Part shown: positions 49,075 to 51,778 of the stretch, piece by piece | How positions within the stretch are numbered: position 1 is the first letter of the stretch | Layout of the letters: each line of letters opens with the position of its first letter | Assembly (NCBI RefSeq): GCF_058153355.1 | Contig: NZ_CM177019.1 | Strand: one strand, 5' to 3' | DNA length: 64,000 nucleotides | The notes under the pieces: generated by a model | Seen by the model: the letters and a program-made list of their open reading frames with translations, nothing else | What the model was told of the DNA's origin: nothing | Databases searched by the model: none | Translations under genes and position numbers: made by a program

Positions 49075-49900
49075 GGAGGTGATACCGGCGGACAGGACGT
49101 GGCGTCACGCGCCCCTGCCGAAGCCGAAGGTGGACGGCCCGCAGAGTGCCATCGTGACCGGGCCGAAGGGCGAGGAGATATTCTGCGACGAGCATGGCCG
49201 GGTACGGGTGAAGTTTCACTGGGACCGTTATCACGGGATGACGGAGGAGAGTTCATGCTGGATACGGGCGTCGCAGGCATGGGCGGGACCGGGGTTCGGC
49301 AATCTGGCGATACCGCGTGTGGGTCAGGAAGTGATAGTGGACTTTCTGAACGGCGACCCGGACCAGCCCATTGTGACGGGGCGGACATACCATGAGGACA
49401 ACCGTTCACCGGGGGATTTACCGGGCACGCGGACGCAGATGACCATCCGCTCGAAGACCTATAAAGGAAGCGGCTTTAATGAACTGCGTTTCGAGGATGC
49501 GACGGACAGTGAGCAGGTGTATATCCACGCGCAGAAGAACATGGACACGGAGGTGCTTAACGACCGGACGACGGACGTGAAGCATGACCATACGGAGACC
49601 ATCGGTAACGACCAGAAGATAAGGGTGGTGAAGGGGCAGACGGTTGAGGTCGGCACCAGAAAAGAAGGGGGTCACGACCAGAGTATCACGGTGGCGAACG
49701 ACCGGCGCATAACGGTACGTAATGACCAGACGCTGAAGGTGACGAATGACCGGACGGTGAGCGTGAGTCACGATGACGGCCTGTATGTCAGAAACGACCG
49801 TAAAGTGACGGTGGAAGGGAAGCAGGAGCATAAGACGACGGGGAACCATATCAGTCTGGTGGAGGGAACGCACAGTCTGGAGGTGAAGGGCGACCTGGCG
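49075..49900. repeat. Near-identical vgrG 3'-core repeat, copy 3 of 3
   Basis: See copy 1. Confidence 0.8.
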
Positions 49901-51492
49901 AGGAAGATTACCGGTGCGCTGGGAATGAAGGTCCGGGATGAAATCGTACTGGAGAGTGGTGGTAAAATCACCCTGAAGTGGGTGGCTCGTTTGTGGTCGT
50001 TCATTCTGGTGGTGTGGATATTGTCGGACCGAAAATAAATCTGAATTGCGGGCGCAGTCCGGGGACGCCGATAAATACACTACAACCGGCAGTTATGGAC
50101 GCTCTGGCTGACGAGCAGTATGACAGAGGGAATGCTGGCGGCGGGAATGACGGAGAGCCTAGTGATGAGGATGAATCAGAAGGTGGAGAAGAAGACAAGG
50201 ACGATTCAGATGAACTGGTAATTCCTGTATACGCAAAATCTTGTCTGAAGGAGAAAGGCTGCACTGATGCTGGTACGACCATGGAGCCATCGAAACATTT
50301 TGGTGATATGGCTCTATTTGCCCAGCCAGTGGAGGATGACTGTTGCGGCTATGGTACACACTATCATGACGATGAAGTGGAGCAACTTGCGCAGTCAGCA
50401 AAAAAAACCTCAGGAGCGAACTCACTGACGGGGGAAATGACAGTTGCGTCAGCGGGTGTTGCGGTTCCACTAGCGGCGGAACAGTCTGCGGGAGTTTTAA
50501 CTCGCGTATGGGGAACATTAGGGGCATGGGGTGGAGAAGGTTTTTTAAGTGTATCAAAAACGGTGCCAGCCCTTGGTGTCCTAGTATCAGCACTATATCC
50601 AATACCTGCCGGTGAAGGTAGTGATAAAGTTCCTGGACGGGATGAACAGTGGCTCGAAAATGAGCTACGTCGTAAAGCGCAATCTGGAGAGACGGCAGCT
50701 ACGCGGGCGCGCTTTCTCTTTCAGCGGAATACTGCTGGTGAATTGAGGACATACGGATACCACACACCCGCAGGTTCGGAACTTGAAGGTGTTCGGGTAG
50801 CATTGATGGAGTGGAATAAGGAATTTTCCCGTTATGAATTTTCACCTGTGTCTGATTCGGGACCAAAAATATTTTGGACGCCTGCAAAGCCAGAAGGTTC
50901 AGAGCAGCCCATACACACCGGAACTCCTGTCGAACCAGTTGATCTACCTGATATTTATGTTAATCCGATACCCGATGAAAAAACAGATATCACCACGCCG
51001 CCTTCTCCAATGCCGGAGGAGCGAAATTTTAATGACTGGATACTTGTCTTTCCTGACGGTGCGGAATTAACACCAATATATGTGTATCTGAAAACTGCAA
51101 GGGATGTAGCGGGAACAGTAACAGGTAAGGGGGAGGTGTTAGCAGGTACAGGAAGATGGCTGTCGCAGGCGGGGAAAAGCTTAGGAGTGCCAATTCCACA
51201 ACAGGTCGCAAATAAACTTCGGAGTAAGTCATTTAACAATTTTGATGAATTCATGGCAGCTTTCTGGACTGCTGTAGGTGAATGTCCAGAACTATTGAGC
51301 CAATTTAATAAAGCTAACCAAACGTTGATAAAGCGTGGACGCGCACCTTATACTATATCAAGACAAAGAGTTGGGGGGCGAGGTACATTTGAAATTCATC
51401 ATATTGACGAAATCCAATATGGGGGAGAAGTCTATGATATTGATAATCTTAGAGTAAACACACCTAAAAACCACATACGATTGCATAAATAA
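49075..51492 (+). pseudogene. vgrG: vgrG copy 3, 'evolved' VgrG with C-terminal colicin E9/pyocin-type HNH DNase domain; 5'-truncated by ISAs1 and carrying a -1 frameshift near 49976
   Basis: Starts mid-gene at the ISAs1 right end; vgrG frame runs to ~49976 where ctgaagtgggtgg has lost one G relative to copies 1/2 (ctgaaggtgggtgg); downstream frame continues through a linker to …GVPIPQQVANKLRSKSFNNFDEFMAAFWTAVGECPELLSQ…[43 protein letters not shown] (~51169-51489), which aligns closely with the colicin E9 DNase domain. Confidence 0.8.
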
Positions 51493-51505
51493 AAAGGAGG
51501 TAGTA

Positions 51506-51778
51506 ATGGAGTTTAAAAATAATCTAGAAGATTATACGGAAGATGAATTTATCGAACTTCTAAATAATTTTTTTGAACCACCTGAGGAATTGCATGGCGA
51601 TAAGTTGTCGAAGTTTATTGATGATCTTGTAAGTCATTTTATTAGAATCACTCAGCACCCAGATGGTAGTGATTTGATATTCTATCCATCTGAAGATAGA
51701 GAAGATAGTCCCCAAGGGATTGTTGATGAGTTAAAACGATGGCGAGCATCGCAGGGGCTAGGATGCTTTAAAATATAA
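51506..51778 (+). CDS. Colicin E9-type DNase immunity protein (Im9-like)
   Basis: 90 aa: MEFKNNLEDYTEDEFIELLNNFF…HFIRITQHPDGSDLIFYPSEDREDSPQGIVDELKRWRASQG aligns along its length with Im9 (MELKHSISDYTEAEFLQLV…[35 protein letters not shown]); strong RBS aaggagg; 13 bp after the DNase stop. Confidence 0.85.
   Translation: MEFKNNLEDYTEDEFIELLNNFFEPPEELHGDKLSKFIDDLVSHFIRITQHPDGSDLIFYPSEDREDSPQGIVDELKRWRASQGLGCFKI

Follow-up and report, generated by a model that had tools for sequence, protein, structure and literature searches.

The window analysed here comprises 64,000 nucleotides of contig NZ_CM177019.1 in the NCBI RefSeq assembly GCF_058153355.1, and the element in question is a disrupted vgrG-nuclease toxin gene (referred to below as the relic) together with the immunity gene that directly follows it. 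On the plus strand, which carries all of the features described below, an open reading frame (ORF) of 331 amino acids (49043-50038) overlaps a second one of 504 amino acids (49978-51492, hereafter ORF2), and a third one of 90 amino acids follows (51506-51778). The stretch 49076-51492 corresponds to the 3′ 70% of a vgrG gene that continues into an acidic linker and then into a Pyocin_S/IMT domain and a colicin/pyocin HNH DNase. An earlier, sequence-only reading of the locus had described an evolved VgrG with a colicin-type DNase and a cognate immunity gene, which is borne out by Pfam, ColE9, and Im7/Im9 matches and by intact versions of the protein, 1,151 amino acids long, in other genomes.

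In frame A, the vgrG remnant (49076-49978) covers codons 347 to ~647 of the fusion gene, as delimited by the blastn breakpoint, and represents the gp5-like/beta-helix part of the spike. The gp27-like N-terminal half is missing, the match to the VgrG profile TIGR03361 being limited to positions 339-513 of 513 (E = 8e-87; 49076-50035), whereas intact relatives match this profile over its full length. Frame B begins (49978-50223) with the C-terminal tail of VgrG (VGGSFVVVHSGGVDIVGPKINLN...) followed by the acidic linker (ORF2 residues 40-82), in which 18 of the 43 residues are Asp or Glu. The toxin cassette then starts (50224-50667) with a Cys-rich motif (PVYAKSCLKEKGCTDAG...DDCCGYG, also written PVYAKSCLKEKGC...DDCCGYG) and a hydrophobic, Gly/Ala-rich stretch (ORF2 residues ~150-215), which were recognized by motif alignment and hydropathy. 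This segment (ORF2 residues 83-230) is common to cassettes borne by Hcp, PAAR, and VgrG proteins and is partly shared with klebicin G and VPA1263. It is covered by no Pfam family, and its candidate roles are a metal or disulfide site, or interaction with the membrane.

The remainder of ORF2 consists of two recognizable domains. The Pyocin_S/IMT domain (PF06958; ORF2 residues 231-370; 50668-51087) is matched over essentially the full profile (E = 7.6e-32, model positions 2-139 of 139), resembles PDB entry 3MFB (E = 2e-20), and lies directly upstream of the nuclease domain. The colicin/pyocin HNH DNase (PF21431; ORF2 residues 379-504; 51112-51492 with the stop codon) is also matched throughout (E = 4e-49, model positions 1-124 of 124). 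Among solved structures, the best match is klebicin G (ORF2 residues 188-504, E = 1e-44), and the DNase structures of ColE9, ColE2, and ColE7 match with E values of 1e-36 to 1e-32. The similarity to the ColE9 DNase extends over residues 373-504 (E = 1.4e-36), that is, ~130 amino acids; the sequence-only reading had recognized this kinship and put the segment at ~110 amino acids, which is too short, and it had overlooked both the Pyocin_S/IMT domain and the conserved N-terminal region of the cassette. NCBIfam NF047924 (VPA1263) matches ORF2 from residue 103 onwards (E = 5e-65). The HNH residues H474, H475, N490, H499, and H503 (H102, H103, N118, H127, and H131 in E9) are kept, as are R375 and E472 (R5 and E100 in E9). 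Since the GC content falls stepwise from the vgrG core (59%) through the Pyocin_S (47%) and DNase (42%) domains to the immunity gene (35%), the composition is typical of a grafted toxin cassette.

More than 80% of the region 49000-51900 is present in four of 5,426 complete E. coli genomes. In strain N96, it forms a single continuous ORF of 1,151 amino acids. An exact look-up of the immunity protein (152 blocks of the assembly collection, ten places listed) placed it in all ten listed cases between kdp-ybfA and ybgA-phrB. The intact 1,151-residue ORF occurs at this ybfA-ybgA site in nine of 12 distinct other genomes. The remaining three carry different lesions: ET350 (locus L002) has a 5′ frameshift, L011 is broken near residue 650, and in L012 an insertion sequence separates the Pyocin_S and DNase domains.

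Compared with these copies, the toxin gene of the window is damaged in several ways. In blastn alignments, the vgrG homology sets in at exactly 49076, immediately after an ISAs1-family element whose right end is at 49075. Position 49076 corresponds to codon 347 of the intact 1,151-codon gene; codons 1-346 are absent. In addition, one G is missing from AAGGTGGG at 49977/78, giving AAGTGGG, relative to N96, ET350, and ten intact-copy loci in nine genomes. This 1-nt deletion (49977-49978) shifts the toxin part into the -1 frame, so that the toxin domain is out of frame with the VgrG core and frame A continues to a stop codon at 50036-50038. Alignment with intact E. coli homologues, which had been suggested as a check, thus confirms both the truncation and the -1 frameshift that had been placed at ~49976. 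Once the G is put back, the relic runs colinear with the intact genes over 2,418 nt, without any further indel or stop. The relic also has private substitutions, two of them in the VgrG tail (G24C and G26R) and two in the DNase (E377V and R426M). R426M results from a change of AGG, as in N96-type copies, to ATG at 51253-51255. Residue 426 aligns with R54 of the ColE9 DNase, a position occupied by Arg in 109 of 109 homologues as well as 12 of 12 other E. coli copies. It was reported that Arg54 of E9 influences Im9 binding (PMC4177600). R426M is classed as a putatively damaging missense change at an invariant arginine. The view that the DNase and immunity coding sequences are free of lesions holds for stop codons and indels and for the immunity protein, but not for the DNase, in view of this substitution.

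No promoter or start was found for the truncated toxin gene. Because the gp27-like half and a start codon with a Shine-Dalgarno (SD) sequence are lacking and the frameshift and R426M are present, the toxin of this locus is, as judged from its sequence, dead and undeliverable. The ratio of non-synonymous to synonymous substitution rates (dN/dS) between the relic and ET350 amounts to 0.2-0.37 over the cassette, mostly as a result of evolution that preceded the inactivation; between the relic and N96, the differences are too few for an informative dN/dS.

The immunity gene is in a different state. An SD sequence (AAGGAGG, 51494-51500) and a 5-nt spacer precede the coding sequence of a 90-residue protein of the colicin/pyocin immunity family (51506-51778; 51494-51778 with the SD), and the gap to the DNase stop codon is 13 nt. 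PF01320 is on record for the exact protein. The ORF matches Im7 (E = 4e-25), Im2, and Im9 (E = 2e-19); the family had been correctly named in the sequence-only reading, which took Im9 to be the homologue, whereas the protein is nearer to Im7, from which it differs by a 4-residue insertion in the specificity region. It is 100% identical to the immunity protein of N96 and the MFDS strains, in which the toxin is intact, and its gene differs from that of N96 by one synonymous and no non-synonymous substitution. The hot spot of helix III (D51, Y54, and Y55 in Im9) reads D-L-I-F-Y, the first Tyr being replaced by Phe. Because the same residue is present in the immunity proteins of strains with the intact toxin, this Phe is probably a lineage feature.

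With regard to expression, the best sigma-70-like match of the region (TTGATA-18-TATACT, 10 of 12 positions; 51325-51354) lies inside the 3′ end of the DNase sequence, 150 nt upstream of the immunity gene, and both hexamers are conserved in ET350. By its match to the consensus, it is a candidate promoter for the immunity gene. In nuclease-colicin operons, the immunity gene has a promoter inside the toxin gene, and the candidate site fits this arrangement. Transcription by read-through is also possible since all genes of the island are co-oriented. The A-run between the DNase stop and the SD of the immunity gene (51491-51495) has one A fewer than its counterpart in N96 and ET350, and this constitutes a second private 1-nt deletion; being upstream of the SD it is probably harmless, and it bears on the question of sequencing errors discussed below.

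The site of the frameshift coincides with a trace of recombination. The intact neighbouring vgrG (42511-44712; 733 amino acids; TIGR03361, E = 3e-176) is 96.2% identical to the relic over 1,023 nt of its 3′ part (43552-44574; blastn), and the identity drops to 75-83% within 120 nt past the frameshift. When the ten intact-copy loci, which agree 10/10 at each informative site, are taken as the reference, 29 informative positions within 49901-49971 of the relic are of the neighbouring-vgrG type. Fusion-type sites flank this patch (49901-49983) at 49855 and 49869 on the left and at every informative site from 49986 on the right. The deleted G falls in the right-hand transition of the patch, and the private substitutions at 49960, 50047, and 50053 cluster around it. 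These patterns indicate that a tract of ~80 nt was copied into the relic by gene conversion from a vgrG like the neighbouring paralogue, and the frameshift probably arose during that event.

Programmed -1 frameshifting was considered and rejected. Frame A ends in CGA-AAA-TAA (50030-50038), where a slip of Lys-tRNA would enter frame B. However, this A-run is also present in the intact copies, which do without a slip; moreover, 19 codons would be translated in the wrong frame, and there is no start. A scan for terminator-like structures also returned a short hairpin (TCACCC-TGAAGT-GGGTGG) with a T-rich run at 49968-49985, exactly over the frameshift site, which is probably a chance match.

The relic belongs to an island between yibF and yibH-mtlA, in which a vgrG, an M35 peptidase effector gene, a second vgrG, a gene for an 829-residue effector, a 136-codon gene, ISAs1, the relic, the immunity gene, a 5′ fragment of ISAs1, an orphan muramidase effector fragment, and a 149-codon gene follow one another. 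The ISAs1-family (ISEc1/H-repeat-like) element at 47785-49075 is 1,291 bp long, its left end reading CAGGGAAAGATCAC and its right end ...CTTGCCCTG; homologous copies are annotated as ISAs1 family in RefSeq. Its transposase ORF (47929-49065) is broken by an in-frame TAA at 48595-48597, and this copy is probably immobile for that reason. The 40-mer at the junction between the element and the relic is GGGCTTTCGTAATCTTGCCCTGGAGGTGATACCGGCGGAC, and the ISAs1::vgrG junction has no match in the 5,426 complete E. coli genomes.

Loss of ~350 codons to an ISAs1 insertion, as proposed in the sequence-only reading, is right with respect to the truncation (346 codons) and wrong with respect to a simple insertion. 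The left end of the element adjoins unrelated intergenic DNA past an unrelated effector/immunity pair, not vgrG. In addition, there is no target-site duplication, the 10-nt flanks TACAGGCAGG (left) and GAGGTGATAC (right) being different. The 5′ part of this ISAs1 copy (47785-48203) is of the yibF-island type (414 of 426 positions identical vs. 384 of 426 for the ybfA type). The second, truncated 5′ fragment (51861-52278) is of the ybfA-locus type, with 36 of 41 informative sites within 51861-52264, and from 52588 on the yibF type returns at 22 of 24 informative sites. The same yibF island, but lacking the relic, is found in N96 and in at least seven further assemblies, and these assemblies have an intact VgrG-DNase gene at ybfA. 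As these switches in the type of the informative sites and the relic-free yibF islands elsewhere show, the block from within ISAs1 to ~52264 was imported from a ybfA-type locus by homologous (ectopic) recombination. On the same alignments, the crossover on the left is placed within ISAs1, and that on the right (52265-52587) falls in a shared effector core.

How the intact system would work can be outlined from its homologues. The 1,151-residue protein would form a trimeric type VI secretion system (T6SS) spike that carries the cassette on the acidic linker. After firing, the spike would take the cassette into a neighbouring cell, the Pyocin_S/IMT domain would move the DNase across the inner membrane of the target, and the HNH DNase would degrade the chromosome. 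The 90-residue immunity protein would bind the DNase tightly and thereby protect the producer and its kin. The IMT domain was shown to be required for the import of pyocin G and 97.6% of the colicin-DNase effectors that SecReT6 lists for the T6SS contain it (PMC9040868). In the window, a block consisting of the remainder of ISAs1, vgrG from codon 347 to its end, the immunity gene, and the ISAs1 5′ fragment was moved into the vgrG island between yibF and yibH.

The locus is a pseudogenised and displaced copy of an evolved VgrG nuclease effector, and on balance it is probable that the toxin gene is dead while the orphan immunity gene next to it is alive. We infer that the immunity gene is expressed and protective; most likely, it still works as orphan immunity against E. 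coli cells that fire this DNase. Persistence of the locus as protection against kin, which had been put forward in the sequence-only reading, is plausible from the sequence and is the preferred reading for the immunity gene.

Several points weigh against this interpretation. The promoter-like site is a mere consensus match within coding sequence. The substitutions relative to N96 (one synonymous, none non-synonymous) are too few to demonstrate purifying selection on the immunity gene, which could be intact simply because it is small and the event recent. The window alone leaves the T6SS status and the ybfA copy of this genome out of view, and the genomes with a broken toxin were found through the exact look-up of the immunity protein and are biased toward retained immunity. 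Finally, the frameshift could be a sequencing error, whereas the truncation cannot.

The main rival to the orphan-immunity interpretation is that the locus is a wholly neutral relic, in which toxin and immunity genes alike are silent remains of a recent rearrangement and the immunity ORF has stayed intact only because it is short and the event young. This is a real but clearly lesser possibility. It would account for the very small number of changes relative to the intact copies, for the absence of the ISAs1::vgrG junction from the complete E. coli genomes, by which the event looks recent or rare, and for the other lesions of the island, namely the nonsense codons in the M35 effector gene and in the ISAs1 transposase. 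It accords less well with an immunity gene that has a canonical SD at 5-nt spacing, the best promoter-like site of the region upstream, and co-oriented neighbours from which read-through is possible, and armed strains of identical immunity specificity do occur in the species. An error of sequencing or assembly at the frameshift, which would leave the toxin half otherwise as in the intact strains, is unlikely. The second private 1-nt deletion in the nearby intergenic A-run could be cited in its favour, but the missing G belongs to a GG dinucleotide and not to a long homopolymer, its position is precisely at the edge of the recombination tract beside clustered private substitutions, and the neighbouring long ORFs (two vgrG genes and the gene for the 829-residue effector) are unbroken. 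Even if the G were restored, codons 1-346 would still be absent.

Slightly less probable still is that the block is a silent orphan cassette that serves as a reservoir for recombination, as in Rhs and CdiA systems, and could recombine onto the expressed vgrG upstream and so switch the weapon. Its layout resembles the Rhs and contact-dependent inhibition (CDI) orphans (PMC3150448), since a 5′-truncated toxin gene and an immunity gene are co-oriented downstream of a full-length paralogue with 96% identity over 1,023 nt. The conversion tract also records recombination with a vgrG of the neighbouring type, and homologous recombination carried the block itself from one island to another. The usable homology, however, lies almost wholly to the left of the frameshift, and a chimera would inherit both the frameshift and R426M; moreover, the observed direction of conversion is from the paralogue into the orphan and not the reverse. 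It is very improbable that ORF2, or a shorter protein initiated internally, is produced and functions as a DNase on its own, either as a cargo effector or in an intracellular pair resembling a toxin-antitoxin system. PGAP's annotation, in relatives, of a 403-residue "S-type pyocin domain-containing protein" that starts at an internal ATG and the occurrence of proteins of 440-460 amino acids in databases would be expected under this explanation. Nevertheless, the 403-residue coding sequence is an artefact of splitting the continuous 1,151-codon ORF, and the database proteins begin with residues internal to the VgrG fusion and probably are split gene calls as well. No SD precedes GTG 49978, ATG 50092, or ATG 50281, and a domain for loading onto the T6SS is lacking; the internal start that the sequence-only reading had allowed for the DNase thus finds no support.

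As a broader and rather speculative proposition, evolved-VgrG toxin/immunity blocks may be trafficked among the vgrG/rhs islands of E. coli and exchanged with resident vgrG genes by homologous recombination via ISAs1 copies and conserved effector or vgrG cores, which would be equivalent to the switching of orphan cassettes in Rhs and CdiA systems. If this is true, the import between islands and the 80-nt conversion tract would be its footprints, and the fact that the DNase was lost repeatedly while the immunity gene stayed would reflect selection for genotypes that are disarmed but immune.

The same VgrG-DNase gene has been inactivated independently four times by different lesions (in L011, L012, ET350, and the relic), and the immunity gene was kept each time, the protein being exact in three of the four broken loci and different by three amino acids in ET350. 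Such cases suggest that disarming while staying immune is a common route.

Similar systems have been described. VgrG-NucSe1 (SARI_02603), encoded with SARI_02602 in SPI-21 of Salmonella enterica subsp. arizonae (Blondel 2009; Ho 2017; PMC12992299), has the same VgrG core with a C-terminal colicin/pyocin HNH DNase and a colicin/pyocin-family immunity gene for ~90-98 amino acids directly downstream. It was reported that VgrG-NucSe1 contributes to interbacterial killing and that its C-terminal region is toxic in E. coli, which is partly relieved by the immunity protein (PMC12992299). In contrast to VgrG-NucSe1, which is intact and located inside a T6SS core cluster, the present gene is a 5′-truncated and frameshifted relic in an E. 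coli vgrG/rhs island, and no T6SS core genes were found in the window. SARI_02603 is not among the listed sequence matches and is thus not a close allele; the two are likened by architecture.

With colicins E9, E7, and E2, pyocins S2 and AP41, and klebicin G, the relic shares the DNase domain, the upstream IMT/Pyocin_S domain, and the family of four-helix immunity proteins (Im9/Im7/Im2), the D-x-x-[Y/F]-Y motif being present here in the Phe form. Unlike in these nuclease bacteriocins, a T6SS spike replaces the receptor-binding and Tol/Ton translocation domains, there is neither an SOS promoter nor a lysis gene, and a Met takes the place of the invariant arginine corresponding to R54 of E9. The same cassette is found on other carriers, such as Hcp-ET3/ET4 of E. 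coli, PAAR-pyocin-DNase proteins of Pectobacterium and others, and VPA1263 of Vibrio parahaemolyticus. From the PVYAKSCLKEKGC motif through the IMT and DNase domains, cassettes with 44-57% identity are fused to Hcp (PF05638), PAAR (PF05488), or VgrG (PF05954) in many Enterobacterales, and these homologues all cover 84% of the ORF2 query, from ~residue 80. The Hcp, PAAR, and VPA1263 versions differ in the carrier domain, and no cassette found outside E. coli exceeds 57% identity to the E. coli VgrG allele. DNase activity of Hcp-ET proteins has been reported (PMC6730261).

Like the orphan modules of Rhs and CdiA loci (PMC3150448), the locus comprises a 5′-truncated toxin gene with homology to the core and an intact immunity gene, co-oriented downstream of a full-length paralogue, and the surroundings are rich in ISAs1/H-repeat elements. 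It differs from them in that the carrier is VgrG and in that the frameshift, at the distal end of the shared homology, and the damaging missense change prevent re-arming by simple recombination; the structure is thus that of an orphan toxin/immunity module, whereas activation by recombination is not in evidence. Arrays of orphan immunity genes have also been described in T6SS clusters (Kirchberger 2017, as cited in PMC6730261). Every component, from the VgrG-DNase effector and its immunity protein to the IMT domain and the orphan immunity gene, is therefore of a kind already known. The significance for biology at large is small, as what lies in this E. coli toxin island is an ordinary relic and not a new system. 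What is new for this locus is the import between islands, the conversion patch at the missing G, R426M, and the IMT domain. With its ectopic import, its conversion patch, and a frameshift at the edge of that patch, the locus is a clean and datable example of the remodelling of a toxin island.

In the literature searched, the E. coli VgrG-IMT-DNase allele, which is intact at ybfA in at least nine genomes, has not been experimentally characterised, and two in-silico surveys of T6SS effectors in E. coli do not mention it. A search of 5.8 billion proteins with the intact 1,151-residue query returned, among the best 120 matches listed, plain VgrGs only, with at most 64% coverage and no full-length fusion. 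An exact scan of species-representative genomes for 25 nt of the immunity gene gave no matches. RefSeq/PGAP splits the continuous ORF of N96 (L001, 6963-10418) and MFDS1022581 (L004, 4963-8418) into a "tssI pseudogene, missing C-terminus" and the 403-residue protein mentioned above, whereas gene calls on the GenBank side give the 1,151-residue product. Several "S-type pyocin" entries of 440-460 amino acids from other genera resemble the same annotation artefact. Because one continuous ORF is split in this way, evolved VgrGs will be missed, undercounted or mislabelled by surveys based on protein calls.

Some other features of the island were also noted. The M35 metallopeptidase effector gene (40577-42355) is split by a nonsense codon at 41420-41422, which is TTA in N96 and TGA here. 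The split form (281 + 304 amino acids) is called in most related strains (L015, L016, and L020-L024), and N96 and L017 have the intact 594-codon gene. An exact look-up of the 829-residue effector of the window found nothing on record. The orphan effector fragment (52224-53898) begins with the ISAs1 5′ piece and a short internal ISAs1 piece (52276-52302, matching 48512-48538), which continue in frame into a second copy of the central part of the 829-residue effector gene (52287-52829, corresponding to 45856-46398 with ~96% identity); a different, muramidase-type C-terminus and the 149-codon putative immunity gene follow. In relatives, the ltrA gene of a group II intron (reverse transcriptase/maturase) is located just downstream of toxin-immunity modules and beside ISAs1 fragments, in the ybfA island as well as in the yibF island (L001, 14438-15760; L005, 7858-9180; L015/L023, ~9140-10393), and it is absent from the island in the window.

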